61,011 nucleotides of DNA from positions 1 to 61,011 of the IMG/VR virus record IMGVR_UViG_3300025000_000107. One strand, given 5' to 3'. The notes below the pieces were generated by a model, which saw nothing but the letters and a program-made list of their open reading frames with translations, was not told where the DNA came from and searched no databases. Within the stretch, counting starts at the first letter, position 1. Each line of letters starts with the position of its first letter. Below are positions 5,556-50,074 of the stretch, in pieces. The DNA is from a virus. Taxonomy: Duplodnaviria > Caudoviricetes. The translations under genes and the position numbers were made by a program.

Positions 5556-6530
5556 ATGTCGTTAAAACGAGCACTAGCTGATGAAGAAGCATTGGAAAAG
5601 GAACTTTTTGCTGAGGTGAGTGACCCTGAGAAATCAACCACTCCCATCCCGAATGTGGATACTTTTGAACTGGACGATGATTCAGATGAAAAGAATCCTA
5701 ACCTTGATGCCGATGAGGTAGTTGAGGATAGTAAGGAAGATGCTAACAAGAAGAAACAATCTTGGAAACAAAGGTTCGCAAGCTACAAAGGATCCACAGA
5801 TAGGACAATATCAAACCTTCGTAAAGAGAATCAGTCTTTGATCGGGCAGATCTCTGAAGCACGTAAAGAAATCTCAAGGCAACATGCTATTGTCGCTGAA
5901 CTGCAGAATCGCGACAAGGACGTATTCGGTGAGGTGATCACTCCTGAAGACGTAGAGACTATTGGTGTCGAGGCAGTAGATATTGTTAAGAAAACTACTA
6001 AGCGAGCAACTGAAGCAGCAGTAGGGCCTCTCCTCGAAGAGATCAAGCAGATGAAAGCTAAAGAGCTGGAAGCTGCTAAGAAAGCTCACGAGAGTAAGAG
6101 AGTAGCTGAGTACGGTAAGTTCACATCTAGGTTGGGAGAACTTGTTCCTGACTATCAGGCTGTGAATCTTGATCCTGGTTTTGAGATCTTTATGATGAAT
6201 ACAGATCCTAATACTGGTGAGAAACGTATTGATGCATTTAGGAGAGCTGAGGACTATCTGGATCACGAAAGAGTTGCCGACTTCTTTAATGACTATAAGG
6301 CTAGTATTCCAAGGAGCAAGAAAGAAATGCTGGAAGATAAGATAACAGTAGAGGGTTCGGCTTCCGGCTCAGCACCCGCACAATCAAAGAAAGAAACTTT
6401 CTCTATTAAAGATGTAGACAAGTTCTTCAATGATATTACTAAGGGTGTCTATAAAGGACGAATGAAAGAAGCAGATGAAATTGAGGCTAGGATTACTAGA
6501 GCTTACATAGAAGGTAGAATTACCGATTAA
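5556..6530 (+). CDS. capsid scaffolding protein
   Basis: Acidic, helical, directly before capsid gene; GGAG RBS. Confidence 0.7.
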   Translation: MSLKRALADEEALEKELFAEVSDPEKSTTPIPNVDTFELDDDSDEKNPNLDADEVVEDSKEDANKKKQSWKQRFASYKGSTDRTISNLRKENQSLIGQISEARKEISRQHAIVAELQNRDKDVFGEVITPEDVETIGVEAVDIVKKTTKRATEAAVGPLLEEIKQMKAKELEAAKKAHESKRVAEYGKFTSRLGELVPDYQAVNLDPGFEIFMMNTDPNTGEKRIDAFRRAEDYLDHERVADFFNDYKASIPRSKKEMLEDKITVEGSASGSAPAQSKKETFSIKDVDKFFNDITKGVYKGRMKEADEIEARITRAYIEGRITD

Positions 6531-18771: not shown

Positions 18772-21700
18772 ATGTCAGACTATAATTTTTCCCAACTGTT
18801 CGGAGATCCTATTAATGATTCCTACATGTACGAAGGTGGGGAAACCCCTTTCGCTGCAGAGCGTTGGGACATAACAGATATCGTAAGTTCCCTATGGAAA
18901 GGTACTGGTGAGACTGCTAGGTTGTTTGGTAGAGGATCTGGTTCTGAAACCCTAGAAGGTATCGGAACAAGCATATCTGAAAGTGATTTTGCTAAACCAG
19001 ACGAGAGCACCTACTTCGGTAGAGACTCTTACAAGAAAGAAATCCTTATGGGTGCAGCTGAGTCTGCGCCCCTCACTGCAGTCCTCGCTGGTGCTAGTAC
19101 TTTAGGTACTATGGCAGGAGGCCCTGTAGGGACTGTAGCTGGTCTTACAGCAGCAGGTTCGGTACTCTCTCGTGGTCTCTACCTTGATAACATGGATAGG
19201 TATTGGGAGCAGCATCCTGATGGTACTGATGAAGATGCTATCAAGTACTCTGCTATGCATGCTGGAGTTGAAGCACTTACTGAGGTTGGTGGCGCAGCTC
19301 TAGGGTTCGGTGCCTTGAAGCTTGGTGGACAGGTTGCTAAACCCTTCTTGATTAATGCTATTGAGAAGGGTGTTATATCTACCGCTGATGTACTGGATAC
19401 TGTAGCTGCTAAGGCTGGTGCGACTACATTCATGCAGAGGATGTTTGGTGCTACTCTACCTGAAGGTGGTGAAGAGGTTGTAGCATCTTACCTCCAGCAC
19501 AAGTTAGATACCTCATATGAAATGAAGACTGAAGCTCCAGACTACTTCAAGACTTTCTTGATTGGTGCTGTAGCTTCAGGTCCGTTTGCCATAGCTGGTG
19601 CTAAGATTACTAGTGACCAGCAGAACAAGATTCGTAATAACATCGAGACAGGCCTTCAGTCTGAAGATAAAGACCAGCGTCTCCATACAGTAAAGCAGGT
19701 CTATGATACTATCAAAGAGGTATCACCTGAGGCAGCTCTTAACTGGGACAACTATGCTAGTGTAGCTGCAGTTAATGGACCTCTCAGTCTTGATGGTACT
19801 GTAGACCCATCACTTGCTTGGAAGAAACATCTCCAGGAGTGGCAGGATTCTCGTAGGACTAAGGAAGAGTTGTATGAAGTAACAAGAGATCCTGCTGAGA
19901 TCCTTAAGGGATTTGAGATTCCTTTCGGTACTGCAGACATGCAGCCTGTAGCAACATCAGCTGATCCTTATGGTGCTGGTATTGCACCACCTACAGCTTC
20001 TAAGATTGATCAGCTCCTTGAAGAGAATAAGCAGAAGGCTATCAGCCCTACACTCTGGCAGGATTATCTCAAGTCTATCAAGGGTAAGAGTACTGTAGCT
20101 GAAGTAGTAAGACCTGAAGCAGATAAGACCGCACAGTGGAAGAAGCCTATCTATGACAACACAGCTAAACTTGCTGCAGTTGAAGAGGAGATTAAGGATG
20201 CAGACACTAACGAGCTTCCTGCTACAGAGATAGCTAAGCTTAAGGCAGACGAGGAAGAGACCTTCAAGGCTAGAAGGATCCAAGAACTTTCAGCTAAGAG
20301 AAAGGCTCAGCTCACGCCGTATGAGAAGCTTCGTCTTGAAGAACTGACAGGTAAAGAGAAACTTACCTTGAAGGAAAAGAAAGAGACTAAGACCCTCAAG
20401 GCTAAGGATAAGGCAGCTAAGGAGATAGTGGTTACAGAGGCTAAGGTTGAGCCTACAGCAGCTGTAGCAGCTGACGTGACTCCTACTACCACTGTAGCTA
20501 CTGTAGACGATACAGAGTACTCTAAGGACGATCTAGAGGGTATTGAAGTTGACATCCCTCTTGGTAAGAATAAGAAGACTGGTGAGATTAAGTGGAAGAA
20601 AGGTGTACCTGCACACGACGCTCTTGATGAAATCAGAAAGGCAGAAGAGAAGTGGCAAGCAGTTGTAGATACAGCCACTGATCCTAAGATAGTTGAAGGT
20701 GCTAAGAACAGACTGAAGCAGGAAGGGGTCCGTAAGGCTAAGATAGAAGAGCAGATCGGTAAGGTAGCTAAGACTGGTACTAAAGAAAGTCGTATCAGAG
20801 AGGCGATGATCGATCAGGCTGGTATCATTAATGACCCTGCTGTAGATGAGAAACTGAAAGAGAAGGCTCAGCTTGAGCTTGATAGGTTGGAGAAACTACT
20901 TCAGGTTGATAAGTCTGGGATTGCTAAAGGTGCTACTACTGGTGTTAATACTGCAGGAGAAAAGCAGGTAGTAGAGTATTCAGACAACGCTAGAGATTGG
21001 AAACCAGTTGATAAGAGCAACCCTAATGTTCTTGTTAATCAAAATAGTATCATCATTAAAAATAATGACAGCAATTGGTCAGTATTCCAGAGAGATGAAG
21101 ATGGTGGACTAGTACCTGTAGGTAGAGGTTTCAAAAGAAAGAGTCATGCTATAGCAGCTCTTAGAGCTGGACAGACTAAGGAAGAGTACTACGGTGCCAA
21201 TCCTGAGGAAGCTCCTAAACCTCTAACAGATGACCAGAAGAAGCTTGTAGGTAGTATCAAAGACGTAAGGAAGCTTATAGGTTCTCGTATTAATAAGATT
21301 ACAGATTTAAGAGGAGATCCCGAAGCAGATGGTATAGCAACTGAGGCTATCTTCGAAGCTGCTGGTAAGTTCAAAGAAGGTAAGGGAGCGTCCTTTACTA
21401 CGTTTGCTACCTCTGTTATTGATGCTAGGCTTAAGGAGTATAACGAGAACAGATACAAGTTCGAGACTCAGGGAGTAGAGAGTACTGAATCTACTACTGG
21501 AACTATAGAGTCTGCAACTCGTTCTGATGTGTACGAGACTCCAGCTACTGAGGTGCAGAAGCAAGAGAAAGAAGCACCACCTCCAGTTACAAAAGTTGAT
21601 GTATCTTCTCTTACTGAAGAGGAGAAAGCTAGGTATGGACAAGGTGGTGTAGTAAAGAAGAGGACTCTTGCTGAGCAGAAGGCTGAACTAGATGCTATGA

Positions 21701-24700
21701 GACAGGCTGAGAAGGCTGCTGATAATAAGGTAGATGAAGAGATCTCAGAAGAGCAGAAGAACTCTGAAGCTCAACAGGATGTTAAGGATAAGAAAGCTAA
21801 GGCTGAGGCTGAGACTAAGAAGAAAACCTTAGCAGAGAAAGAAGCTAAGAAGAAACTTGATGATGAAGCAGTTAAAGCTAAGAAGGCTGATGAGAAACTG
21901 AAGAAAGATCAAGCTGCTGCTAAGAAGGTTGTAGATAAGGATAGTGACTCCTATAAGAAAGCGCAGGAGATCAAGAAGCTTGAGCTACTTAAGAAGTCTC
22001 TCACCCCTACAGATCCTGCAGATCCTAAGTCAGCTAAGATGCAACCTCCTCCGGGTAAGACTCTGGAAGAGACCTTAGCTCGTATAGATAGAATGATTGA
22101 GGAGCTGAATGGTACTAAGACTGATGCATCTCCTGTTATCCTTAGGAGATCTAAAGCCAAAGAGGCTTTCGTAGACACTAAGAAAGAGCAAGTACTCTTG
22201 AGCACTGAGGCAGTTAATAAGGCTAGAGAGATCCTTGATCGAGTTAAGGGAAACAAAGCTGAAGCCTATAGGGTGATTGAGTCTATTAAGGAGGATGCCT
22301 TTAGGGAGAGTGTTAGAGCACAGGTAGAGGTTATGAACTATACGAACCTCTCTTCTATTATCAAACCATTTCTAAATAAAGACAAGTCCTCTCAAGAATA
22401 TAAGCTAGCTACTTGGATTAACAAGCTTATCCTTGACTCTGGTAAAAAGAATATCAATGTAATTGTAGATCCTACTGCAGCGTATGAGCAGTTCTCTCAT
22501 GCCGGCAGTGGTACTGTAATAGTCAAAGCTCTCAACACTACTACCGTAAACCTGCATGAAGTTATGCATGCTATCACAAGTAGGGAACTCGATAATAGCC
22601 CTGAGTTAAAGTTGAGGGTTCGTGCTTTGATGGACCTCGTAGAAAAGGCCGCCATTGAACGATCAGATATACAGATAGACAAGGCTATGCTTAAGAAGCT
22701 TCGTTCAATAGAGCCCACTTCAGCAGCCTTTAGGGAGGCATTTGATGTAGCTAACCTCGGAGATCATGGCGGTATCCTTTATGCCCTGCTCAATGAGAAA
22801 GAGTTCCTCGCTCAGGTGATGAACGATAAAGCCTTTCAAGATCTTTTGTTAAGTACTGAAGTACCTGTGAAGAGTGGGTTCATCAAGAACCTCTTTGATC
22901 ATGTAGTTGAGATCTTCCTCCAGATGTTTGGTAAGGGAAAGATACAACACAACGCTATGAAGGAAGCCCTGCAGTTGATGGCCGAACTCTCTAGAGTTAA
23001 CTTAGCTAAAGGCCCTGTGGTTTCTAATCAGGTAGATGGTCTACTGGTTGGTGAAAGGTCACAAGGTATCCATCTAGGCACCCTCCTCGATGCACAGTTT
23101 AGAGGTGCTAGGGGTGACAATATGGAAACCATCAGGAAGGGGACAGGTTGGTATAAGGATCCTATAGATGATAAGTGGAGGTTTGAGATCTCTGATCATG
23201 AAGCTGAGTGGCTTAATCCTTGGGAAACCTTAGAGACCTATGAGGATGGTACTGATGGTGAGTTTAAGTTATTCGATATCCTGATCCATGATAAACTCTT
23301 CGAGGCTTATCCTGAGTTGAGGAACATCATGGTCTATAAAGAAGACTTCGGAAGAAACAGTAACATTCTCGGAGAGTACAGGCCTTATAGTAGATCTATC
23401 GCTGTGAATAGTAGGAGCAACAGTGAAGAAGCTCTTAGTACTATCATGCATGAGATACAACATATTATCCAATTCAAGGAAGGATTTGCTAAGGGTGGTA
23501 ACACTGCTTCAGTTAGCGTAATCAATAGTCGTTCTGAGATTGAAGATCTCCTGATAGAACAAATCAATAGGAGATTAGATAGAGGATCTGATGCAGACAA
23601 CAGGGTTCTTCCAGAACTTCGTGAGAACTTAGCTGAGATCCGTAGTATCCATGAGTGGGCTGAAGAGAACGAAGACCTTCTTGAAGAACTCCGTGATATA
23701 GAGGATGAGTTAAAAAGGTTAGAGGTCGAGTATAATAAGGATGCTAAAAGAATTAGAGATAGGATTAAGATAAAAGAGGACAAGAGGTACAATACAGATC
23801 CTTTTGACAACTCAGCTGCGTGGGAAAAACTAGATAATGAAATCAAGTCTATGTATAAAAGTCTTGATAAGTTAGCTAAAGATTCTAGCAAAAGAGTTAC
23901 ACGCTTGGCTAGTAGAAAAGATGACATCTTAGATGAAGTAAACTATCCAACAATAAGTGATGACCTTAAATACCACGCCTATAGCCTTATAGCTGGTGAG
24001 GCTGAGTCTAGGGTTATTCAGAAGCGTATGAAGTGGCAAGAGCACCAGAGGAAAGAGTTCTCACCACTTGAGTCTCTTGATGTACCTGCAGAGGCTAGAA
24101 TCTTAGCACCTTCAGATCACTCAGTATCTATGTCATCTATGTCGAAGACGCCAGAGAAGACAGAGGCTGAGAGGGATAAGGTCTTAGAAGCTAACGATGT
24201 TAATGCAACTAAGATAGGAGCTATCAAGAACTTCTTTACTGACAGTATGAGTAAAGAGGTTAAGCGATTGGCTATGGGAATGACTGAGCATCTTCGAAGG
24301 ATAGACCCTCGTCTTCTCAACTATGTACGTAAGTTCGAGATGGCAATCATTAACTACAATGTAAAGTATCAGAGAATGGCTGATCCTTTCGTTAAGAAGT
24401 TTAAGAAGTTGAGTGATAAGGATAAGAGAATGTTGGGGCTTGTATTGCTTAACAACTTCCCTCAGGACATAGAGAAGAGGTTCGAGATCCTTAAGAGAAA
24501 CAATATGGTATCTGAGTATGAGAAGATAGTTGAGATACTCAAAGATATCCAGAAGCGTAAGAAGATGGTGTCTATAGGTGACTATAGTGAGATAGAGGGT
24601 TACTTTCCTAGAACTATTAAGGATCGTATGGGGTTGCTTCAGGCTATGAAGAAAGACCCAAACTATGGTGTAATAGATCAGGAACTCTCTGAAGCTGGAC

Positions 24701-26361
24701 TAGATGAAGCTGATAGAATCTCAGCGATAGAGAAACTTCTCCACACTGGCAGATACCCTGCACTTGCATTACTGAAGCCAGGGTCTAGTAAGAAGAGGAG
24801 AATCGAAAGGGTGTCATCTGAATGGGCACACTTCTACGAGAACCCTATTGACAGCTTACTCAGTCACATCTATGAAAACAACGAGGCTATCGAAGCTCGG
24901 AACATGTTCGGTGATACTAGGCGTAAAGGCTTAGCTCAGAAACGAGATGAGATGATGAAGGAGCTGGAAGCTGATAAGCTTTCTGCTGGTAAGAGGAAGG
25001 CTATCATAGGCAGGATTGTAGCTATCGAGAAAGACCTTGATGTATACAATGATAAGGATGGAAAGGAAGGTGCATGGAACGAGGGTATAGCTGACCTGCT
25101 GTCTAGAGTAAACGCAGAATATCAGAAGGATCCCAAGAATGCCTTCAGGTACACTGAGAATCAACAGATGGAGATCATCGCACTCATACGTGCGCGTCTC
25201 ACCCAAAGAGGTATGAGCGGTGCTTGGCAGACCTTGAGGAACGTATCCCTCATGACAGCACTTGGTAATCCCACATCTGCTATAACTCAGTTGTCAGACT
25301 TTGCAATGTCAGTACATACCAATGGTCTGATGAATACAGTAAGCAGTATGTTCGGTGATCAGATAATCACTACTAAAGATCTTGATCTATCTCATAGCCT
25401 GAGAGAGTTCCAGTCCAGTAGTAGTGCAGCTGTACTTGATAAGGTTCTTCACTTCTCAGGTTTGAAGTATATGGATCTGAAAGCTAAGAACACATTCATG
25501 AATGCAGCAATGAAGAAAGCTAAGTCCCAAACCTTTGAGCAGTTCGACAAACAGTGGGGTAGTACTCTAGCTGGAGATACTAAACAAACTTATGAGGAGT
25601 TGAAGGAAGGAAAGAATTCTGATAGGACTAGGTTCTTCGCTTTCAATGCTCTCTCTGAGTTCCAGCCAGTGTCACTGTCAGAGATGCCTGTTGGTTATCT
25701 TACAGCAGGTAACGGAAGGTTATTCTATGCACTGAAGAGTTACAATATTAAGATGATAAACGTCTATGCTCGTAAGCTGTTCTATGGTATGAGTACTGCT
25801 AAGAATAAGACGGAGAAGGCAGCAGCTATTAAAGACGCTATGTCTCTCCTCATCTTGATGACCCTTGCAGGTGCTGGAGCAGATGAGTTGAAAGATCTTA
25901 TCATGAATAGGGATGTAGAGTTCAGTGATAACGTTCATAACAACATACTCAAAGCTTTCTTCATGAACTCTTATATGTTGGAGCAGGGTAGTAAGAAGGG
26001 TATTATTAAGCAGATGCTTACTGATACTATTCTTCCACCCACAAGAGCTGGTGATGATGCCCTTAAGGATCTTACTAACCTCTTGGATATGGATCCAGAT
26101 ACTGAGGCAACTATGAAGTTCCTCAAGAGTGTACCTTGGGGTGGTATAGTGTATGCATGGACTAGTGAAGATGCAGACAAAGTGAACTATACTAATATGA
26201 AAGAGGGTATCTCCAAGGATATTAAATCTGGGGATTCTATCAGTGATGTAAGAAGTAGAATGCTGAAGTACAATCAGTGGGCTAGAGGTGCAGGAGAAAC
26301 CCTGATCACTTACTCTTCTATTAAGAAGATGAGAAATAAAAAGAAGGATCAGAAGAAGTAA
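18772..26361 (+). CDS. large polyvalent virion/ejection protein (two HExxH metallopeptidase-like motifs, LPD23-like domain, sigma region-2-like segment)
   Basis: 2529 aa; LHEVMHA and MHEIQHIIQ; TGWYKDPIDDKWRFEISD...LFEAYPEL...EGFAKGGN...AGEAESR is characteristic of LPD23. Confidence 0.75.
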   Translation: MSDYNFSQLFGDPINDSYMYEGGETPFAAERWDITDIVSSLWKGTGETARLFGRGSGSETLEGIGTSISESDFAKPDESTYFGRDSYKKEILMGAAESAPLTAVLAGASTLGTMAGGPVGTVAGLTAAGSVLSRGLYLDNMDRYWEQHPDGTDEDAIKYSAMHAGVEALTEVGGAALGFGALKLGGQVAKPFLINAIEKGVISTADVLDTVAAKAGATTFMQRMFGATLPEGGEEVVASYLQHKLDTSYEMKTEAPDYFKTFLIGAVASGPFAIAGAKITSDQQNKIRNNIETGLQSEDKDQRLHTVKQVYDTIKEVSPEAALNWDNYASVAAVNGPLSLDGTVDPSLAWKKHLQEWQDSRRTKEELYEVTRDPAEILKGFEIPFGTADMQPVATSADPYGAGIAPPTASKIDQLLEENKQKAISPTLWQDYLKSIKGKSTVAEVVRPEADKTAQWKKPIYDNTAKLAAVEEEIKDADTNELPATEIAKLKADEEETFKARRIQELSAKRKAQLTPYEKLRLEELTGKEKLTLKEKKETKTLKAKDKAAKEIVVTEAKVEPTAAVAADVTPTTTVATVDDTEYSKDDLEGIEVDIPLGKNKKTGEIKWKKGVPAHDALDEIRKAEEKWQAVVDTATDPKIVEGAKNRLKQEGVRKAKIEEQIGKVAKTGTKESRIREAMIDQAGIINDPAVDEKLKEKAQLELDRLEKLLQVDKSGIAKGATTGVNTAGEKQVVEYSDNARDWKPVDKSNPNVLVNQNSIIIKNNDSNWSVFQRDEDGGLVPVGRGFKRKSHAIAALRAGQTKEEYYGANPEEAPKPLTDDQKKLVGSIKDVRKLIGSRINKITDLRGDPEADGIATEAIFEAAGKFKEGKGASFTTFATSVIDARLKEYNENRYKFETQGVESTESTTGTIESATRSDVYETPATEVQKQEKEAPPPVTKVDVSSLTEEEKARYGQGGVVKKRTLAEQKAELDAMRQAEKAADNKVDEEISEEQKNSEAQQDVKDKKAKAEAETKKKTLAEKEAKKKLDDEAVKAKKADEKLKKDQAAAKKVVDKDSDSYKKAQEIKKLELLKKSLTPTDPADPKSAKMQPPPGKTLEETLARIDRMIEELNGTKTDASPVILRRSKAKEAFVDTKKEQVLLSTEAVNKAREILDRVKGNKAEAYRVIESIKEDAFRESVRAQVEVMNYTNLSSIIKPFLNKDKSSQEYKLATWINKLILDSGKKNINVIVDPTAAYEQFSHAGSGTVIVKALNTTTVNLHEVMHAITSRELDNSPELKLRVRALMDLVEKAAIERSDIQIDKAMLKKLRSIEPTSAAFREAFDVANLGDHGGILYALLNEKEFLAQVMNDKAFQDLLLSTEVPVKSGFIKNLFDHVVEIFLQMFGKGKIQHNAMKEALQLMAELSRVNLAKGPVVSNQVDGLLVGERSQGIHLGTLLDAQFRGARGDNMETIRKGTGWYKDPIDDKWRFEISDHEAEWLNPWETLETYEDGTDGEFKLFDILIHDKLFEAYPELRNIMVYKEDFGRNSNILGEYRPYSRSIAVNSRSNSEEALSTIMHEIQHIIQFKEGFAKGGNTASVSVINSRSEIEDLLIEQINRRLDRGSDADNRVLPELRENLAEIRSIHEWAEENEDLLEELRDIEDELKRLEVEYNKDAKRIRDRIKIKEDKRYNTDPFDNSAAWEKLDNEIKSMYKSLDKLAKDSSKRVTRLASRKDDILDEVNYPTISDDLKYHAYSLIAGEAESRVIQKRMKWQEHQRKEFSPLESLDVPAEARILAPSDHSVSMSSMSKTPEKTEAERDKVLEANDVNATKIGAIKNFFTDSMSKEVKRLAMGMTEHLRRIDPRLLNYVRKFEMAIINYNVKYQRMADPFVKKFKKLSDKDKRMLGLVLLNNFPQDIEKRFEILKRNNMVSEYEKIVEILKDIQKRKKMVSIGDYSEIEGYFPRTIKDRMGLLQAMKKDPNYGVIDQELSEAGLDEADRISAIEKLLHTGRYPALALLKPGSSKKRRIERVSSEWAHFYENPIDSLLSHIYENNEAIEARNMFGDTRRKGLAQKRDEMMKELEADKLSAGKRKAIIGRIVAIEKDLDVYNDKDGKEGAWNEGIADLLSRVNAEYQKDPKNAFRYTENQQMEIIALIRARLTQRGMSGAWQTLRNVSLMTALGNPTSAITQLSDFAMSVHTNGLMNTVSSMFGDQIITTKDLDLSHSLREFQSSSSAAVLDKVLHFSGLKYMDLKAKNTFMNAAMKKAKSQTFEQFDKQWGSTLAGDTKQTYEELKEGKNSDRTRFFAFNALSEFQPVSLSEMPVGYLTAGNGRLFYALKSYNIKMINVYARKLFYGMSTAKNKTEKAAAIKDAMSLLILMTLAGAGADELKDLIMNRDVEFSDNVHNNILKAFFMNSYMLEQGSKKGIIKQMLTDTILPPTRAGDDALKDLTNLLDMDPDTEATMKFLKSVPWGGIVYAWTSEDADKVNYTNMKEGISKDIKSGDSISDVRSRMLKYNQWARGAGETLITYSSIKKMRNKKKDQKK

Positions 26362-42837: not shown

Positions 42838-43361
42838 ATTGTAACTCCCATGTTTGATCTGATAGTCTTGATGATACGCTTCTTCATATAGCCAGTTTTC
42901 CTAATCGTTACTCCGGCTGCCTTAGCAACCTCAGCTTTAGGATCGCTGTGGACAATAAGCCCATAATAAATGATTCTATCCTGTGTATCTGTGGGTGCTA
43001 GTCCCTCTATGATCCCTTCGTTATCATCACCCTCCTCGTAGATATCCTCAGTTCTAGGCTCATCATCTGTCTCAACAACATTACAGAAAGGGACCTCCAT
43101 CTCTTCTTGTTTCTGTATCTTCTTTAAGAACCATATCATCTCATAGCGTATAGCATTAGATGCATAAGTATTAAACTGGAAGCCACGATCAGGGTCAAAC
43201 TTCAGTGATGCCTTACGTAAGGACACCATACCTATACCCATGAGATCATCTCGGTGGCTAGAGTACCTTCTGTTTCTTTCTCGTGATAGGAACTCATCTA
43301 CTACCACCTCAACCATTCCGAAGAATGTCTCACATAAGTCCTTACGTTCTTGATCTGTCAT
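42834..43361 (-). CDS. phage sigma-70-family RNA polymerase sigma factor
   Basis: Region 2 DDLMGIGMVSLRKASLKFDPDRGFQFNTYA; C-terminal HTH KAEVAKAAGVT. Confidence 0.8.
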   Translation of the reverse strand: MTDQERKDLCETFFGMVEVVVDEFLSRERNRRYSSHRDDLMGIGMVSLRKASLKFDPDRGFQFNTYASNAIRYEMIWFLKKIQKQEEMEVPFCNVVETDDEPRTEDIYEEGDDNEGIIEGLAPTDTQDRIIYYGLIVHSDPKAEVAKAAGVTIRKTGYMKKRIIKTIRSNMGVTI

Positions 43362-43501
43362 ATCTTCCTCTTAATTGTTAGCAACTTCCATATCTTAGGG
43401 CTCCTTAAGATATACGCATGATCAACCTCATTGTATGGTACTGTAATGATCTCTCTCCTACTACTACTGAGTGTATTAACTACGAGGAGGAACATCTTCA
43501 C
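43358..43501 (-). CDS. microprotein family member A1 (47 aa, ends LTIKRKI)
   Basis: Hand-translated MKMFLLVVNT...RREI...KLLTIKRKI; GTGA/ATGA overlaps. Confidence 0.6.
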   Translation of the reverse strand: MKMFLLVVNTLSSSRREIITVPYNEVDHAYILRSPKIWKLLTIKRKI

Positions 43502-43647
43502 AGCACCCTCCTCACCCTCAGCACCGCATAGACTTCAGGTCTGTTGTGTACAAACTCCTCTATATCTTTAGACATTGGTTGACCATACATACTTCTATTA
43601 AGTCTATTGTCATATACCCCAACAAACAACATGTACTTAAATTGCAT
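43498..43647 (-). CDS. microprotein family member A2 (49 aa, ends LRVRRVL)
   Basis: Hand-translated MQFKYMLFVG...NRSM...AVLRVRRVL; CACTATATAA upstream at 43660-43669. Confidence 0.6.
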   Translation of the reverse strand: MQFKYMLFVGVYDNRLNRSMYGQPMSKDIEEFVHNRPEVYAVLRVRRVL

Positions 43648-43671
43648 AGCCTATATTATTTATATAGTGTA

Positions 43672-43815
43672 TCATTGTATGAACTCCTTCACCTTTAGGA
43701 TCCTATAAGATTGTAATCCAGATTTAGACTTTAGAAAACGACGACTACCAATATCTGATATATGACAAATTATTTTCCTATTAGTAAATCCTATTATAAA
43801 CAATAGCTTCCTCAA
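43672..43815 (-). CDS. microprotein family member A3 (47 aa, ends LKVKEFIQ)
   Basis: TTG start overlapping HNH stop: MRKLLFIIGFTNRKI...ILKVKEFIQ. Confidence 0.5.
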   Translation of the reverse strand: MRKLLFIIGFTNRKIICHISDIGSRRFLKSKSGLQSYRILKVKEFIQ

Positions 43816-44282
43816 TGTACATCTCCCCAATTCTTTCCAGATAAGATACCAAGTGTTGATCCTTTCGGATAACCAAAAGATACTAAACACTTTAATCTAT
43901 AACCGATAGATATTAAGAATCTTATATCAATAACCTCATCTTCTACTAATAAAGATCTTGCATTCATTGAACCTTTAGCGCTTCTCCTCCCAGAATTATA
44001 AGAGTGTTTTATATTATCTCCATGAGATAACCACCTAAGATTATCAAGATTATTGTTTAACTTGTTTCCATCTATATGGTCTACATCTGATAGATGATAT
44101 GGGTTTGGTAGGTACACCTCAGCAACCAGCCTATGTATAGCTTTACATACCCTTCTCTTATCTGTATTAATGTTGACAATTAAATACCCTCTCCCATTAT
44201 CATAAGATTTAATAATACCACCAAACTTATTGAAAACTTCTCCATTAGTCGTAACATGATACGAGTAATAGTTCTGATCCAT
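43812..44282 (-). CDS. HNH homing endonuclease (HNH_3 type)
   Basis: IHRLVAEVYLPNP...VDHIDGNKLNNNLDNLRW...NIKH; CACTATATAG at 44341-44350. Confidence 0.9.
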   Translation of the reverse strand: MDQNYYSYHVTTNGEVFNKFGGIIKSYDNGRGYLIVNINTDKRRVCKAIHRLVAEVYLPNPYHLSDVDHIDGNKLNNNLDNLRWLSHGDNIKHSYNSGRRSAKGSMNARSLLVEDEVIDIRFLISIGYRLKCLVSFGYPKGSTLGILSGKNWGDVH

Positions 44283-44356
44283 AGTGCACCACCATTAGGT
44301 TTAGGTTATAACTCTTAAGATTATCCCTACGAACTATAACCTATATAGTGTATGGA

Positions 44357-45442
44357 TCAGTGAACGTCAGCCCACGTCATACCTATCTTCACATCAGCAT
44401 CTATAGGAGTAATTAGATTCAACTGGTCTTGAACCATATTAGCACCAAGTTTAATTATACGAGATGCTTCTTCTGCATGATCAGGAAGACACCTATAACC
44501 AGCCTCATCGTGGTATTCCAGCATTTGTCTGCAGTAGATTCCTGAACTTTCAATCATCCTATTTGTATTGATTAACCACATCTTGAATATAAGTGCAGCT
44601 GTACTTTGAATAGCTGTATTAAGAAGCTTATACTCTTGACGTACTTGAATTCTTCTACCATCGAGACCTACAATATACTTATTCTTCTTAAAGAATTTAG
44701 TAAGATAATCTACAATCATCTTGACTCCTAGATTACCAGACCAAAAGTTATCAATATATATCTCAGCTTGTTCTTCAGAGCACCCTAATATTCTCGAAAG
44801 CTTAGGTGCTCTAGCTCCGTAGAAGATCGCATATTGAAAACTTTTCGCAGTGTTTCTAGTACTTTGGATGAGGTCAGCGTTGTACTGATGAAGATCAGGA
44901 ACAGAGTTTATCACATCCCAATAGGCACCACCATCAAACAGTGAGGCCCAGTGTGCTGTGACCCTAGCCTCAATAGCCTTGAGGTCAGCACCTATCATTA
45001 CATAAGGTGCCCACACCCTGAAGAGGGACCGCATCTCAGTACCGTAGATTACTTTAGGGTCAGCCTTTGGTACATTACAGACAGCACCACTATGTGTAGT
45101 CCTGCCAGTAGGTGTAGCACATGGCATCCCTTCAGCAGATACCCTACCATCACTCCTTACCTTAGAAAGGATACCCTTATTCTCAGGGTCCTTTATGTTC
45201 TCGATGGTTCTCCTTCTATGTACAAGGACGTTCCTTCGAGCTACTAGTTGGCCTGTCTTACCTTGAATAGAGTCGAATGAATCCTCAGTTAGCTTAGGTG
45301 ATGTAGGTTCCTTAGTCTTCTTGTTATAGTTGAACTGAGTAGGAACCCAACCAACAGATAGTAAGAATGCTTTTACTTGTTCATGACTATTGAGGTTGAT
45401 TCGTTCGTACTTGATCTTACAATAAGGTCCTCGTATATTCAA
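44357..45442 (-). CDS. family A DNA polymerase, polymerase domain (T7-like)
   Basis: ATPTGR, motif A GADLKAIEAR, motif B AKSFQYAIFYG, motif C YHDE. Confidence 0.95.
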   Translation of the reverse strand: MNIRGPYCKIKYERINLNSHEQVKAFLLSVGWVPTQFNYNKKTKEPTSPKLTEDSFDSIQGKTGQLVARRNVLVHRRRTIENIKDPENKGILSKVRSDGRVSAEGMPCATPTGRTTHSGAVCNVPKADPKVIYGTEMRSLFRVWAPYVMIGADLKAIEARVTAHWASLFDGGAYWDVINSVPDLHQYNADLIQSTRNTAKSFQYAIFYGARAPKLSRILGCSEEQAEIYIDNFWSGNLGVKMIVDYLTKFFKKNKYIVGLDGRRIQVRQEYKLLNTAIQSTAALIFKMWLINTNRMIESSGIYCRQMLEYHDEAGYRCLPDHAEEASRIIKLGANMVQDQLNLITPIDADVKIGMTWADVH

Positions 45443-45446
45443 TTCA

Positions 45447-45608
45447 TTACCACCAAAAATGTAGTAAACATTTATCTATCTTGTTATCCTTTAAGAAAGC
45501 TATAAGATTAGGACAACCATCTTCATACTCTTCGTAATCCTCCTCTAACTCTCCCTCATCATTAATGAACCAATCGTCCTCATCATACACCTCAATCCAA
45601 AAGTTCAC
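45447..45608 (-). CDS. highly acidic 53-aa microprotein
   Basis: Hand-translated MNFWIEVYDEDDWFINDEGELEEDYEEYEDG...HFWW; GTGA overlap. Confidence 0.5.
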   Translation of the reverse strand: MNFWIEVYDEDDWFINDEGELEEDYEEYEDGCPNLIAFLKDNKIDKCLLHFWW

Positions 45609-45736
45609 ACCACCCTCTTAACCTTTAGTCCTATGAACGGGTCGATGTAGTAGTCCTTACAGCTACCTGTAGTTATACTTCTCGAAGAACTATCAGGGCT
45701 ACCTCTCCACATTATGATAAAGAACCACACACTCAT
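45605..45736 (-). CDS. microprotein family member B2 (43 aa, ends LKVKRVV)
   Basis: Hand-translated MSVWFFIIMW...SRSI...GLKVKRVV. Confidence 0.6.
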   Translation of the reverse strand: MSVWFFIIMWRGSPDSSSRSITTGSCKDYYIDPFIGLKVKRVV

Positions 45737-45942
45737 ATAGCCCTCTTTAGTTTTAGTGCCACACAATGCATCTCTGGATGGATGTAGTATCCTCCACCCC
45801 TGAAGTATCCTCTGGTTCTAGTACCTAGATTAGAGAGTGAGTGGATTGGGTAGACGCTTTTGCACATAGGATTCATATCTGATAAGAAATAAACACCATC
45901 CTTTAATCCCTCAACCTTATCTCGTATCATATAGAATATCAT
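45733..45942 (-). CDS. microprotein family member B3 (69 aa, ends LKLKRAI)
   Basis: ORF track; MIFYMI start; ATGA overlaps on both ends. Confidence 0.6.
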   Translation of the reverse strand: MIFYMIRDKVEGLKDGVYFLSDMNPMCKSVYPIHSLSNLGTRTRGYFRGGGYYIHPEMHCVALKLKRAI

Positions 45943-46076
45943 AGTCTCCTCTTAATCGTTAGCTTTCTCCACCTAGAGTACTCATCATCGTACAAACTAG
46001 CCGTGCTTACTGAGTATATATTCCTAGTGAAATCCTGATCACCGTACATCATCAGAAGGTGAAACGATTTCCTCAT
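45939..46076 (-). CDS. microprotein family member B4 (45 aa, ends LTIKRRL)
   Basis: Hand-translated MRKSFHLLMMYG...TRNI...KLTIKRRL; overlaps end of exonuclease ORF. Confidence 0.55.
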   Translation of the reverse strand: MRKSFHLLMMYGDQDFTRNIYSVSTASLYDDEYSRWRKLTIKRRL

Positions 46077-46776
46077 TAGCTATCCACTTCTTAGTGGCCT
46101 CATTATATGTTCCATCCTTCTTGAATGGTAGAGTCCCTATATCCAAGTTACCAACACCGATCACCCTCATAGGCATCACCTCATACAGCAGCTTATCCAA
46201 CTCAGCGATCTCAGTATCCATCCTGACTATCAGATCTTCAGCCAGCCCAACATCTATATCGACACCCTCGATCTCTTGAGCTGCACGATACATAGCGAAG
46301 TCTTGCTCTATCTCAAGAGACCTGATCCAGTTCCATGATTGACAGTACCTTTCTACTAGGTACTCATAGGTCATTACATTTATCTCTACATCCTCTGAGC
46401 ACCTGAACAACATATCCTCAGAGAACACTGACCAATCCTCATGTACTGGTTTGCTTCTCCTGAACTGCTCTCCGTATGACTCAAGAGAATGACCCCCGAA
46501 TCTCTCGGGATTAAATAGCTTGGACATACAGAGAGTATCCTTCAGCTTCTTATGAGTGAAGGATGGATACAACTTCTTGATAGCTGGTATATCAAACCCG
46601 CAGATGTTGTGTCCTACTATCTGCTCGGCACTACTAAGTAAGGCAAGGCCTTCCTCTATCTGATGTGGTCTGAACTTGAACACCTCTCTAGTCTTCAAGT
46701 CCTTAGCCACTATACAGTGTATGGTGTGGATATCATACAACAATCCGTTACCTTCTAAATCGAAAACGAGTCGCAT
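46039..46776 (-). CDS. DNA polymerase 3'-5' exonuclease domain (separate ORF)
   Basis: ExoI FDLEGNGL, ExoII GHNICGFD, HSLESYG, ExoIII RCSEDV. Confidence 0.9.
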   Translation of the reverse strand: MRLVFDLEGNGLLYDIHTIHCIVAKDLKTREVFKFRPHQIEEGLALLSSAEQIVGHNICGFDIPAIKKLYPSFTHKKLKDTLCMSKLFNPERFGGHSLESYGEQFRRSKPVHEDWSVFSEDMLFRCSEDVEINVMTYEYLVERYCQSWNWIRSLEIEQDFAMYRAAQEIEGVDIDVGLAEDLIVRMDTEIAELDKLLYEVMPMRVIGVGNLDIGTLPFKKDGTYNEATKKWIANEEIVSPSDDVR

Positions 46777-46822
46777 TATTTGTTGATACTTATTAAGTCT
46801 TTTAGAACCATGCTTAACTCCT

Positions 46823-46960
46823 CTATAGACGCCTCTTCACCTTCAGTGGATGGAAGCCTTCACGTGCTTTCGGAGCTGTTGGTTGTTGATAGATTCTAAT
46901 CTGTCTCATCATTGACCAGTGCCAATCATAGTACCCATACAGCATCGTGAAGTGTATCAT
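46823..46960 (-). CDS. microprotein family member C1 (45 aa, ends LKVKRRL)
   Basis: Hand-translated MIHFTMLYG...MRQI...PLKVKRRL. Confidence 0.6.
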   Translation of the reverse strand: MIHFTMLYGYYDWHWSMMRQIRIYQQPTAPKAREGFHPLKVKRRL

Positions 46961-47085
46961 AGCACCCTCTTAATCTTCAGCTCTACAAGTTTCTTCTTCA
47001 AGATAAACCCACCATGAGCTAAACCTAGACGCTGCTTTATAGGTTCTCCATGCCCAAGGTACATATGTGATTGTACATAGAACAT
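46957..47085 (-). CDS. microprotein family member C2 (42 aa, ends LKIKRVL)
   Basis: Hand-translated MFYVQSH...ELKIKRVL. Confidence 0.5.
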   Translation of the reverse strand: MFYVQSHMYLGHGEPIKQRLGLAHGGFILKKKLVELKIKRVL

Positions 47086-47143
47086 CCCTACCCATCCCGA
47101 TGGGTTTAGAGTATCACGTCAGGGCTTATTACAAAACCAGAAC

Positions 47144-48766
47144 TTAAAACTCGTCATCACAAAACTCCTCTTCAAGTTTACCTGACTCTCTGTTGTACCT
47201 CAATGGGATGTGACCAGTGTTACCACCTAATCTATCCTTGATGATAGATAACTTACACTTGTTCCTATCCTCTATAGACTCAGCTAACTGATCCCTACTC
47301 AGACCCCATAGTGCAGTAGAATACTTCCACTGTGCCCTACTACCAGAGAACTGTGATCCATATACCTCACCACCAGCACCATGATCCTTACCACCTGAAG
47401 GGTTATTAAGATGGTTAGCATGGAAGAATGTCAGTCCTTGCTCAACTCGAAACCTTCGCATATCACGCATCACCTTACCGAGTTCTTGATTACCTTCAGA
47501 TGCTGAGAGGTGCTCAACCAATGCAGATAAAGGATCAATAAAGAATATCCTGATACCCTTACTGGCGAAGTATCTGATATTATCCTTAACCTCTTCCCAA
47601 TCTTCAGTGAGTCCATCATAGAACTGCACCTTCCCATCGAGCAGCTCACCTATCCTACGTGCTTCATCTATGTCATACACACAGTCAGGTTTGTGGATAG
47701 GCTTGTTCATGATACCACCTATCAGGTGCTTCAATGCACCCTTAGCCTTCTCCTCGATATCAAAGACTGCAATGTTCTTATTGTGTACGAACATCAAGTG
47801 TTGTTGTATCTGCCTTACGAGGGTTGACTTGCCACCACCAGGAGCACCACCTATACCTATGATCTCCCCTTCATCTTCCTTAAGTCCATACGTGAGTTTC
47901 GTGAGTCTCTCAAAGGGATAAGACAAACCCCACGGAACAGGCTTAATAGTATCGTCCAGAATATCACATACAGCAACAATATTTGAAGGACGGTACTCAC
48001 GGGCGTTGAAGTAAGCATTGATGAACTCCTTCTGCTTTCCCTTTACCAGCATATCGCTGGAGTCTTTCTCTGAGAGGACTAAGACTCTAGCCTTCTCTCC
48101 AATGACGGGTGCATACTTAGCTACCGCTGCTCTACCAGCAGCATCCATGTCAGTAGCGATGATCACTTCCTCGAAGCCCTTCAGGAACTCGAGGTTCTCT
48201 GTGACTGTAGCCAATGAGGACTCCTCTCCTCTTGGCAACGATACTACCGCTGGCTCTACCTCTGGATACCTAGTCTTCAGCATCTCATAGGCAGCACACA
48301 TATCCTCCTCACCACCTACAATCAGCAGCTTCTTTGCAGTACGGGGGCAGCAGAACTGCCCACTATAATCCGGAACCTTCCCCTTCTGTTCTCCTATACT
48401 CGAGAACTTTTTAGGCAAGGATCTTTTCTTATACCCAATGAACTTACCCTGATGTGTCTCAGGATAATAGATCGCTACTGGTACACCTGTAGCTTCTGAT
48501 AACTCAGTCCTGATCTTGAAGTGTTTGTGTGTCTCAGCACTGACAAGCCTTTCAGGGTTACCATAAAACGGGAGGCTCTTTACTTCATCTATCTCCATCT
48601 CCCCTCCATTAGTAGGTGGTTTACATAACTCTCCGTCCCTTTCATAATAAGGAGGATGATAAGGTTTCAGACATGCTCGTGTTACACCATCCTTCATCAA
48701 CCATAAGTGATCTTTAGTTTTATCTCTACCAAGAGAAAAACATATAGGGCATTGGAGATTACTCAT
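47144..48766 (-). CDS. primase-helicase (T7 gp4-like)
   Basis: Zn finger CPIC, TOPRIM GGEEDM and DMD, Walker A GAPGGGKS, FFIDPL, KDR-x-GG. Confidence 0.95.
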   Translation of the reverse strand: MSNLQCPICFSLGRDKTKDHLWLMKDGVTRACLKPYHPPYYERDGELCKPPTNGGEMEIDEVKSLPFYGNPERLVSAETHKHFKIRTELSEATGVPVAIYYPETHQGKFIGYKKRSLPKKFSSIGEQKGKVPDYSGQFCCPRTAKKLLIVGGEEDMCAAYEMLKTRYPEVEPAVVSLPRGEESSLATVTENLEFLKGFEEVIIATDMDAAGRAAVAKYAPVIGEKARVLVLSEKDSSDMLVKGKQKEFINAYFNAREYRPSNIVAVCDILDDTIKPVPWGLSYPFERLTKLTYGLKEDEGEIIGIGGAPGGGKSTLVRQIQQHLMFVHNKNIAVFDIEEKAKGALKHLIGGIMNKPIHKPDCVYDIDEARRIGELLDGKVQFYDGLTEDWEEVKDNIRYFASKGIRIFFIDPLSALVEHLSASEGNQELGKVMRDMRRFRVEQGLTFFHANHLNNPSGGKDHGAGGEVYGSQFSGSRAQWKYSTALWGLSRDQLAESIEDRNKCKLSIIKDRLGGNTGHIPLRYNRESGKLEEEFCDDEF

Positions 48767-49507: not shown

Positions 49508-49642
49508 TTATTCATACCTCCTCTTCACCTTTAACCTGATAGAGCAATTAAGACCATAATATATAGTAGATATCTTTCTGTTATTTGTTGGGAACCACCA
49601 ATTAGAACCCGGCTTATTATGTAGGATATAGAAGCACCTCAT
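49508..49642 (-). CDS. microprotein family member D1 (44 aa)
   Basis: MRCFYILHNKPGSNWWFPTNNRKI...RLKVKRRYE. Confidence 0.65.
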   Translation of the reverse strand: MRCFYILHNKPGSNWWFPTNNRKISTIYYGLNCSIRLKVKRRYE

Positions 49643-49785
49643 AGTTTCCTCTTAATCCTTAAGATAATATACAAACTCTGCTCTCCTTCTATAACCTCCT
49701 CCTCTATCATAACCCTTCTTTGGTTACACTCCCACCACCTAGTAGGGTCTGATGCACACCATAAGATAACCCAAAGGTTTGTCAT
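49639..49785 (-). CDS. microprotein family member D2 (48 aa)
   Basis: MTNLWVILWCASDPTRWWECNQRRV...LYIILRIKRKL. Confidence 0.65.
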   Translation of the reverse strand: MTNLWVILWCASDPTRWWECNQRRVMIEEEVIEGEQSLYIILRIKRKL

Positions 49786-49931
49786 ACCCTTCTCTTTATA
49801 TGTAGTATGATGTATATCGGAACAGAGTATCCTAGTGGATAAGGCCTCTCCTTGTATGCCCTAAGACTTCTATTAAAACTAGGATCCCAATACGTGGGTT
49901 CCTCCTTTGAGTATAGTATCAGGTATCTCAC
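49782..49931 (-). CDS. microprotein family member D3 (49 aa)
   Basis: MRYLILYSKEEPTYWDPSFNRSL...IYIILHIKRRV. Confidence 0.65.
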   Translation of the reverse strand: MRYLILYSKEEPTYWDPSFNRSLRAYKERPYPLGYSVPIYIILHIKRRV

Positions 49932-50074
49932 AAAACCCTCCTAACCATTAGGTATATATAGAGGAACTTGTCCGTATCAGTATGAGTGCATGCTTTATCA
50001 GCACACAACCTCCTCTGATTCCCCTCATACCAGAAGCTAGCATCATCTGTACAATGAAGTATTACGTACACCAT
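49928..50074 (-). CDS. microprotein family member D4 (48 aa)
   Basis: MVYVILHCTDDASFWYEGNQRRL...LYIYLMVRRVL. Confidence 0.65.
   Translation of the reverse strand: MVYVILHCTDDASFWYEGNQRRLCADKACTHTDTDKFLYIYLMVRRVL

Follow-up and report, generated by a model that had tools for sequence, protein, structure and literature searches.

A probable two-subunit family-A DNA polymerase, broken at the thumb-tip loop and with small genes between its halves, in a podovirus-like phage genome

In the 61,011-bp virus record IMGVR_UViG_3300025000_000107, rated 98% complete and analysed here at full length (the window), a T7-like family-A DNA polymerase (PolA) is encoded in two pieces on the - strand. An exonuclease open reading frame (ORF) at 46039-46776 is followed by four small ORFs and then by a polymerase ORF at 44357-45442, as an earlier reading made from the letters of this DNA (the sequence-only reading) had described. 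This arrangement raises the question of whether the phage makes a polymerase of two chains, whether the intervening DNA is removed or bypassed to restore a single chain, or whether the gene is a broken remnant. The answer, in our view with high probability, is a two-subunit family-A polymerase with its break in the thumb-tip loop, expressed from an operon whose genes are tightly coupled in translation.

The upstream gene (46039-46776, - strand) is an ATG ORF of 245 amino acids (aa; 28.4 kDa) and is the candidate gene of the N-terminal polymerase subunit. Its best match among solved structures is T7 gp5: residues 3-71 correspond to gp5 2-74 (E=2.5e-6), and residues 144-199 match gp5 203-259 weakly. 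Its residues 2-232 share 60% identity with residues 4-235 of P0005, a relative of 602 aa in which both parts are fused. Positions D6, E8, H56, D62, D129 and Y137 are invariant across 52 exonuclease halves. The match to gp5 together with the invariant acidic D6, E8, D62 and D129 is the pattern of a DnaQ-like 3'-5' exonuclease; the Pfam family RNase_H_2 scores 16.5 bits on this half, under the cut-off of 22. The final ~12 residues (NEEIVSPSDDVR) are a non-conserved tail, read across the start of the next gene. Given the domain limits of gp5, the product is predicted to comprise the 3'-5' exonuclease domain and roughly 85 residues from the start of the polymerase domain, reaching as far as the thumb-tip loop.

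The downstream gene (44357-45442, - strand), a TTG ORF of 361 aa (41.0 kDa), is the candidate gene of the C-terminal subunit with the rest of the thumb, the palm and the fingers. It matches Pfam DNA_pol_A (PF00476) above the cut-off (E=5.7e-36) over model positions 26-381 of 381, and its best solved match is T7 gp5 residues 324-704. The whole half (1-361) aligns without gaps to residues 242-602 of P0005 at 64% identity. Seven positions are invariant in 38 polymerase-half sequences and presumably belong to motif A (D153, E158), motif B (R196, K200, Y204) and motif C (H311, D312). The DNA_pol_A match and these invariant residues are those of a T7-like family-A catalytic domain. The half does begin at TTG, as had been read from the sequence: its frame is closed upstream by a TAG at 45478-45476, and the first start codon after it is the TTG at 45442.

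The two halves pass a check proposed with the sequence-only reading: both are colinear with the uninterrupted homologue. Only 6 residues of P0005 lie between its exonuclease match (4-235) and its polymerase match (242-602). In fused relatives 9-13 mostly acidic loop residues separate a conserved W from a G-P-F motif. When the profile of the fused relatives is aligned with T7 gp5, the match runs over the whole length (E=1e-105), and the junction falls at approximately gp5 residues 314-318. Residues 300-314 of gp5 are assigned to the thioredoxin-binding domain in PMC8867116, and this domain is described in PMC10201439 as an insertion on the tip of the thumb. By these alignments, the break maps to a variable acidic loop at the thumb tip, at the place where T7 carries its thioredoxin-binding insert.

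The same break is found in many relatives. A search with the polymerase half gave 196 proteins of 198-632 aa at E<=1e-20, the best 120 of which were classed: 76 are stand-alone proteins starting from the same point, 23 are fused (~590-630 aa), 3 are ambiguous and 18 are fragments. Identity of the stand-alone halves to that of the window ranges from 89% down to ~37%, and 66 of the 76 start 1-15 residues ahead of the conserved G-P-F/Y motif. On the other side of the break, 53 of 77 exonuclease-half relatives (the window's own included) are 231-248 aa long and end 2-14 residues past the conserved W. At the level of loci, every IMG/VR locus at >=44% identity (10 of 10 distinct contigs) is split at the thumb-tip site. 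Separate ORFs with their own stop and start codons are thus kept in polymerase halves, exonuclease halves and contigs alike, and the break is old and widespread among uncultured relatives. Two more distant loci (L013 and L014, ~41% identity; e.g. L014 1062-2868) have exonuclease and polymerase frames that overlap ~60-90 codons upstream of the thumb site, and lack an insert; they represent either a frameshift or a domain-border fission similar to that of cyanophage P-SSP7.

One alternative is that an insertion broke the gene and left a non-functional remnant, with the phage using another polymerase. The TTG start and the moderate Shine-Dalgarno (SD) site of the downstream half would agree with decay. 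However, comparisons with relatives L005 and L006 give ratios of non-synonymous to synonymous substitution rates (dN/dS) of 0.06-0.08 (polymerase half) and 0.09-0.10 (exonuclease half), rough values because synonymous sites approach saturation. Catalytic residues do not vary, and the split architecture is kept in the 76 stand-alone relatives down to the lowest identity. Moreover, the polymerase half is the only match of its kind (n=1) in the nearly complete genome. Both halves have thus remained under strong purifying selection after the break and are working genes, and decay is very unlikely. The suggestion of an old interruption that left a two-subunit enzyme gains support from the break shared with relatives and from purifying selection on both halves.

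The four small ORFs between the halves are all present on the - strand. Small gene 1 (45939-46076; 45 aa, isoelectric point (pI) 9.9) overlaps the 3' end of the exonuclease gene by 38 nt and has a weak SD site (-3.1 kcal/mol). Small gene 2 (45733-45942; 69 aa, pI 9.5) is an orphan with an ATG that overlaps the TGA of gene 1 (ATGA) and a stronger SD site, AAGAGGAG (-9.1 kcal/mol). For the third ORF, the start originally listed, TTG 45766, does not hold up well: an ATG at 45736 is likelier, since it overlaps the preceding TGA, so that small gene 3 would be at 45605-45736 (43 aa, SD site -6.3 kcal/mol). Small gene 4 (45447-45608; 53 aa) is an orphan and very acidic (17 D+E, pI 4.1); its GTG overlaps the TGA of gene 3, its SD site has -7.9 kcal/mol, and its TAA lies 4 nt before the polymerase TTG. 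Small acidic early phage proteins are often host-interference factors. Scans with Pfam and PHROG assigned no family to the four gap ORFs, nor to six other small ORFs, and small genes 2 and 4 have no relative in the IMG/VR contigs. In particular, these scans recognised no nuclease gene of the mobE type among the four gap ORFs.

The content of the gap varies between phages. In blastn comparisons with the three closest relatives (L005, L006 and L009), similarity ends at 46069 or 46068 and restarts at 45441-45444, which leaves a block at 45445-46068 (- strand) without similarity to any of them, although the DNA on either side is 77-82% identical. In place of this block L005 and L009 have four other small ORFs, and L006 has three small ORFs and an endonuclease VII gene (Endonuclease_7, E=1.1e-21). 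In the 10 contigs at >=44% identity the gaps are 361-2723 nt long and contain 2 to ~10 coding-strand ORFs of differing content. Since gap content differs entirely between phages whose flanks are 83-90% identical, the space between the halves is a fast-changing intergenic slot for small genes and not one bounded element. The gap of L024 also holds, at 4606-4917, a 103-aa ORF similar to cytidine/dCMP deaminases (PF00383, E=1.8e-8). A contig of an L005-type relative from the same two samples as the window matches window positions 46069-46110 and diverges at 46069; therefore two variants of the slot co-occur in the same samples.

The sequence-only reading had considered the four genes to be a cassette bounded by TAATGA direct repeats. 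The words themselves are as described. The first (46078-46073 on the - strand) lies in the codons GCT AAT GAG of the exonuclease frame and holds the ATG of small gene 1. The second (45449-45444) contains the stop codon TAA of small gene 4 and lies shortly before the polymerase TTG. The two words share their codon phase and lie at a distance of 629 nt; when the 629 nt are left out, one open 596-aa T7-like frame results, reading ...KKWIANELNIRGPY.... Their role as borders is not borne out. With ~24 TAATGA words expected per strand from base composition, there are 16 on the - strand and 30 on the + strand. The longest word common to both border stretches is 6 nt, and words of >=6 nt are shared by 57% of 400 random pairs of the same sizes and from the same strand (P=0.57). 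At 8 other split loci the longest common border words are 5-7 nt long and all different (P 0.26-0.98). The closest relative, ~90% identical in the polymerase half, does not have the TAATGA pair, and a TAG closes its polymerase frame two codons upstream of the ATG. L005 has CAAGAG at the site of the first word. Because the counts are near expectation, a 6-nt repeat is expected by chance and other loci have different words, the TAATGA repeat carries no weight. A mobile cassette with a target-site duplication was also considered and was rejected, as the border repeat is no longer than chance and differs in the 8 other loci.

The words would matter most if recombination at them, or elsewhere in the loop, restored a fused working gene in part of the population. 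In favour are the shared phase of the words and the open reading frame of the joined product. Moreover, fused and split forms have interchanged in evolution, with 9-10 fused/split changes on the polymerase tree. In the maximum-likelihood tree of 103 polymerase halves the fused label requires 10 changes (bootstrap range 10-10), at least 7 of them forced by well-supported branches, and none of the bootstrap trees has only one fused/split change. Forcing the 23 fused rows into one clade costs 489.7 log-likelihood units and is rejected (approximately unbiased test, p-AU 3.3e-5). The tree is compatible both with repeated fission and with re-fusion, and recombination between phages could also spread the split state. 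Since the loop tolerates 9-13 residues, a single working chain could be regained through many different in-frame deletions of the gap. On the other hand, the 6-nt repeat is a chance word that is not conserved, and both separate genes keep their start and stop signals and show purifying selection. Four assemblies from two samples of one study, in which the unjoined form has depths of 3-11, were searched for the joined form. One sample yielded a contig that runs across both borders and shows no differences, the second yielded contigs that cross one border each, and no joint or joined contig was found across the four assembled runs, a weak test as contigs are blind to rare variants. DNA-level removal in this phage is highly improbable.

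Removal could also occur in the RNA, if the 629 nt or a similar segment were a self-splicing intron of a kind missing from Rfam and the spliced mRNA encoded a ~596-aa polymerase. Points in favour are the colinearity of the halves with fused homologues, the group I introns that relatives carry in this same gene, and the intron raised as one possibility for another split PolA (PMC10580990). However, the gap contains no match to Intron_gpI (RF00028) or to any other intron model at E<=10, and the whole window contains none at E<=0.01. The equivalent gaps of the 10 related contigs contain no intron either, whereas the same model finds three above the threshold of 50 bits elsewhere in polymerase genes, namely in L020 (82.8 bits), L012 (75.7) and L024 (72.9). 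The gap of the window is packed with SD-bearing ORFs that have overlapping stop and start codons, and in the 76 relatives the exonuclease halves end, and the polymerase halves start, at codons of their own. Between phages with 83-90% identical flanks the gap sequences show no relationship, and therefore no conserved RNA core can exist. Splicing of the gap is thus hardly likely.

The introns of the relatives (L012 7560-7921, L020 918-1160, L024 5807-6069) lie inside the polymerase half, in conserved motifs. Weaker matches occur in L022 at 4498-4743, 4993-5224 and 6162-6337. HNH ORFs are found beside or inside some of the relatives' introns: one in L022 at 4679-5161 and an HNH_3 ORF at 5738-6232. 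The introns also account for some of the fragments among the 120 classed relatives. Fifteen of the 18 fragments, 202-240 aa long, were initially regarded as candidate second fissions of the polymerase half, and this suggestion was withdrawn, as a group I intron lies at such a break in L012 and L020. The ~205-217-aa fragments there are exon-1 ORFs, because the break holds the intron. A sub-threshold group I intron match (28.8 bits) was also observed in L006 at 3522-3747, inside a ~870-nt insertion in the primase-helicase gene; the window does not have this insertion, and homology there jumps from 47859 to 47824.

Finally, a single chain could be produced from unjoined DNA and RNA, by ribosomes that bypass the gap or by trans-splicing split inteins. 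In T4 gene 60, 50 nt are bypassed in translation, and such bypassing is defined by a short untranslated gap between matched take-off and landing codons. The gap of the window is 629 nt long, has 15-22 stops per frame and contains four translated-looking genes with SD sites. As for inteins, metagenomes are known to contain fractured genes whose halves carry split inteins and have a nuclease gene between them (PMC2677866). However, the Pfam scan of 7 ORFs gave no Hint or intein family. Split inteins are also unsuitable because the exonuclease tails reach only 2-14 residues past the W, and the polymerase halves start only 1-15 residues before the G-P-F motif, which is too short. Joining at the level of protein or ribosome is the most improbable of the alternatives and can practically be dismissed. 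Taken together, the active removal proposed earlier, be it excision, splicing or bypass, is unsupported: against it are the missing intron signal, the chance nature of the repeats, the stops in every frame, the lack of a joined contig and the differing gap content. Removal is seen as a rare evolutionary event and not as a mechanism of expression.

The arrangement of start and stop codons fits separate translation of the two halves. The polymerase TTG (45442) is preceded by a GGTGG SD site with 7-nt spacing (-6.2 kcal/mol, in the top 14% of the background). The relatives' polymerase halves have ATG or GTG starts of their own, some with strong SD sites; in L005, L006 and L009 these are ATG codons with AAGGAG (-8.7 to -9.3 kcal/mol). 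The first gap ORF overlaps the 3' end of the exonuclease gene by 13-47 nt in the window and in all 8 relatives with ORFs listed. The polymerase start is within a few nucleotides of the preceding stop in the window and in 7 of these 8 relatives; the exception is L007, in which only a later ATG is near the preceding stop and the listed TTG lies 31 nt upstream of that stop. As each start overlaps or abuts the previous stop, the polymerase half is likely to be made by its own, probably coupled, initiation at TTG 45442. A scan of 43300-47200 gave 12 promoter-like and 2 terminator-like sites, about as many as in shuffled sequences (11.5 and 1.4), and no terminator inside the gap.

Upstream of the exonuclease gene, an 11-codon leader ORF (MVLKDLISINK; 46776-46811, - strand) has a strong AGGAG SD site, and its TAA overlaps the exonuclease ATG (TAATG). 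Since the exonuclease start has no SD site of its own (-1.0 kcal/mol against the anti-SD sequence), the leader probably delivers ribosomes to it, that is, serves as a device for translational coupling.

Thus, the preferred interpretation is as follows. The two polymerase genes and the four small genes would form one tightly packed, co-transcribed operon. A 28-kDa subunit would combine the proofreading exonuclease with the initial part of the polymerase domain, and a 41-kDa subunit would contribute the rest of the thumb, the palm and the fingers. Nothing would be removed, and the halves would assemble non-covalently into an active replicative enzyme.

Several observations weigh against this interpretation. 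The TTG start and moderate SD site of the polymerase half are weaker than the signals of the closest relatives, and the SD sites of the exonuclease gene and of small gene 1 are weak as well. Of the 83 IMG/VR loci, most (68) are fused, with 13 split and 2 incomplete; the ratio of 76 split to 23 fused proteins given above is not a frequency, because the length limit of 198-632 aa under-counts longer fused relatives. Fused and split forms are interleaved on the tree, and therefore in-frame loss of the gap or its repeated gain must have occurred in evolution. Finally, assemblies drop rare variants, so that a minority joined form of the DNA or RNA is possible.

A further-reaching suggestion is that the thumb-tip break is a recurrent and selectable architecture, and that the slot is a privileged landing pad where small proteins are tried out, some of them acting on the polymerase. 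The basic ~45-aa proteins described below, or the acidic 53-aa protein, might then be processivity or regulatory partners, e.g. at the open thumb tip. The points behind it are the at least 7 label changes at one loop, the use of the same place in T7 as the docking site of the processivity factor and the constant filling of the slot with small genes that appear to be coupled in translation. This suggestion is speculative and improbable.

Small genes 1 and 3 are similar to other small genes of the window. A paralogous family of ~45-aa proteins has at least 8 copies, all on the - strand, at 49928-50074, 49782-49931, 49639-49785, 49508-49642, 46823-46960, 45939-46076 (small gene 1), 45605-45736 (small gene 3) and 43498-43647. 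Its members have an N-terminal hydrophobic strand, invariant W and R, and an L-K-V-K-R-x-L tail. Small gene 3 is recovered by jackhmmer within the family (E=7e-8) and can be aligned with it; small gene 1, when aligned, keeps the invariant R and has an L-x-I-K-R-R-L tail. The family is lineage-specific, and its profile found only 14 proteins among 1.84 billion representatives. The K-R of the tail is largely the SD site of the next gene read in frame: the arginine at position -3 is encoded by AGR in 26 of 26 cases compared to 67% genome-wide (P ~3e-5).

On the - strand the neighbourhood is, in order, the primase-helicase gene (47144-48766), two small ORFs, the 11-codon leader, the exonuclease ORF, the four small ORFs, the polymerase ORF and an HNH ORF. 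The latter, a free-standing HNH endonuclease gene (43812-44282; Pfam HNH_3, E=1.3e-9), lies directly 3' of the polymerase gene. It has a homologue in L002/L005 and none in L006, where homology skips 44356-43349. L006 carries its endonuclease VII gene inside the exonuclease/polymerase gap instead. The gene content of the window fits a podovirus-like phage, with genes for a terminase, an SU10-type portal, a Toprim-DnaB primase-helicase, a sigma-70-like protein and a class II ribonucleotide reductase. A 2529-aa ORF at 18772-26361 (+ strand) contains an LPD23 domain and a DUF6782 metallopeptidase-like stretch, and its product is probably an ejected internal virion protein or a polyvalent protein. 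A near-identity search of annotated phages gave no match. The closest annotated phages show at most 33-40% identity and have a fused polymerase; the nearest are marine phages of the Zobellviridae type, at no more than ~35%. A host scan of genome contigs yielded 5 contigs from metagenome-assembled genomes, with no host information.

Family-A polymerases were long taken to be single chains, and the first fission between exonuclease and polymerase, as presented in PMC10201439, was reported in 2023 from cyanophages. The analysis adds a large uncultured clade in which the chain appears to be cut at the thumb tip, with up to ~ten genes between the halves, and in which the split or fused state has flipped several times. 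Such phages will be miscounted by gene callers and in polymerase phylogenies built on the expectation of a single ~600-aa protein, and for 360-aa "exonuclease-less" PolAs from metagenomes an upstream partner is worth checking. The thumb-tip loop may be a naturally permissive site for splitting the enzyme or for grafting accessory domains, and as such may be useful for enzyme engineering. In one and the same gene family, true introns at conserved motifs can be contrasted with gene fission in a variable loop. We found no description in the literature of a thumb-tip PolA fission with genes in the gap, with the proviso that the supplementary gene tables of PMC10201439 and PMC10580990 may hold relevant data; a split PolA has already been published at other sites, and the thumb-tip split with gene arrays appears to be new.

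The closest analogue is found in the S-SBP1-like cyanophages and in P-SSP7 (017A/017B), where a T7-like PolA is likewise encoded by an upstream exonuclease gene and a downstream polymerase gene. In PMC10201439 the halves of S-SBP1 PolA are predicted to assemble, and they are thought to do so unjoined. However, the cyanophage break is at the border between the exonuclease and polymerase domains, whereas that of the window is ~90 residues further on, at the thumb tip; indeed, the exonuclease gene of P-SSP7 has 177 aa, and its match to the exonuclease of the window ends at residue 140. The cyanophage fission arose by a frameshift, with overlapping ORFs and no insert, whereas in the window 629 nt and four genes separate the halves.

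The OM43 phages MEP401 and MEP402 (Zobellviridae), podoviruses of the same broad group, have PolA in two ORFs with a small ORF between them (PMC10580990), and the authors, in their account of these phages, are undecided between an intron and a split. In these phages the break is just before motif A and the insert is one 77-aa ORF, unlike the array of the window; gp13 (387 aa) ends in ...PNLQNFDGEIKTLFLSRYGE, and gp15 has 236 aa. The MEP401/MEP402 polymerase gave no BLASTP match to that of the window at E<=1e-3.

Genes in pieces of T4-related phages (43A/43B of phages 25 and 44RR; nrdA/mobE of Aeh1) are similar in that inserted DNA splits an essential enzyme into two cistrons. The products of such splits are reported to co-purify and to be active, the halves of the family-B polymerase (PolB) of phage 25 being among those that co-purify (PMC2988022). 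A homing endonuclease gene lies between the halves in some of the T4-related cases; of the phages analysed here, the relative L006 has an endonuclease VII gene in the gap, and no nuclease is recognisable in that of the window. The T4-related splits concern a family-B polymerase or ribonucleotide reductase and fall in a conserved motif, whereas the split of the window concerns PolA and falls in a variable loop. In PhiKZ two PolB polypeptides form a stable 1:1 core enzyme, according to PMC13648687; PhiKZ differs in polymerase family, phage group and site of the break.

Group I introns of phage polymerases interrupt the same gene, but at conserved motifs (e.g. after ...SFQYA, motif B) and with a recognisable ribozyme core. 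In the Pseudoalteromonas phage phiRIO-1, from a related podovirus group, the tubular tail protein B is split by a protein-coding segment and not by an intron, and the products are reported to migrate separately (PMC4819975). This is analogous to the interruption by small genes seen in the window, but the gene that is split in phiRIO-1 is a structural one and not that of the polymerase.

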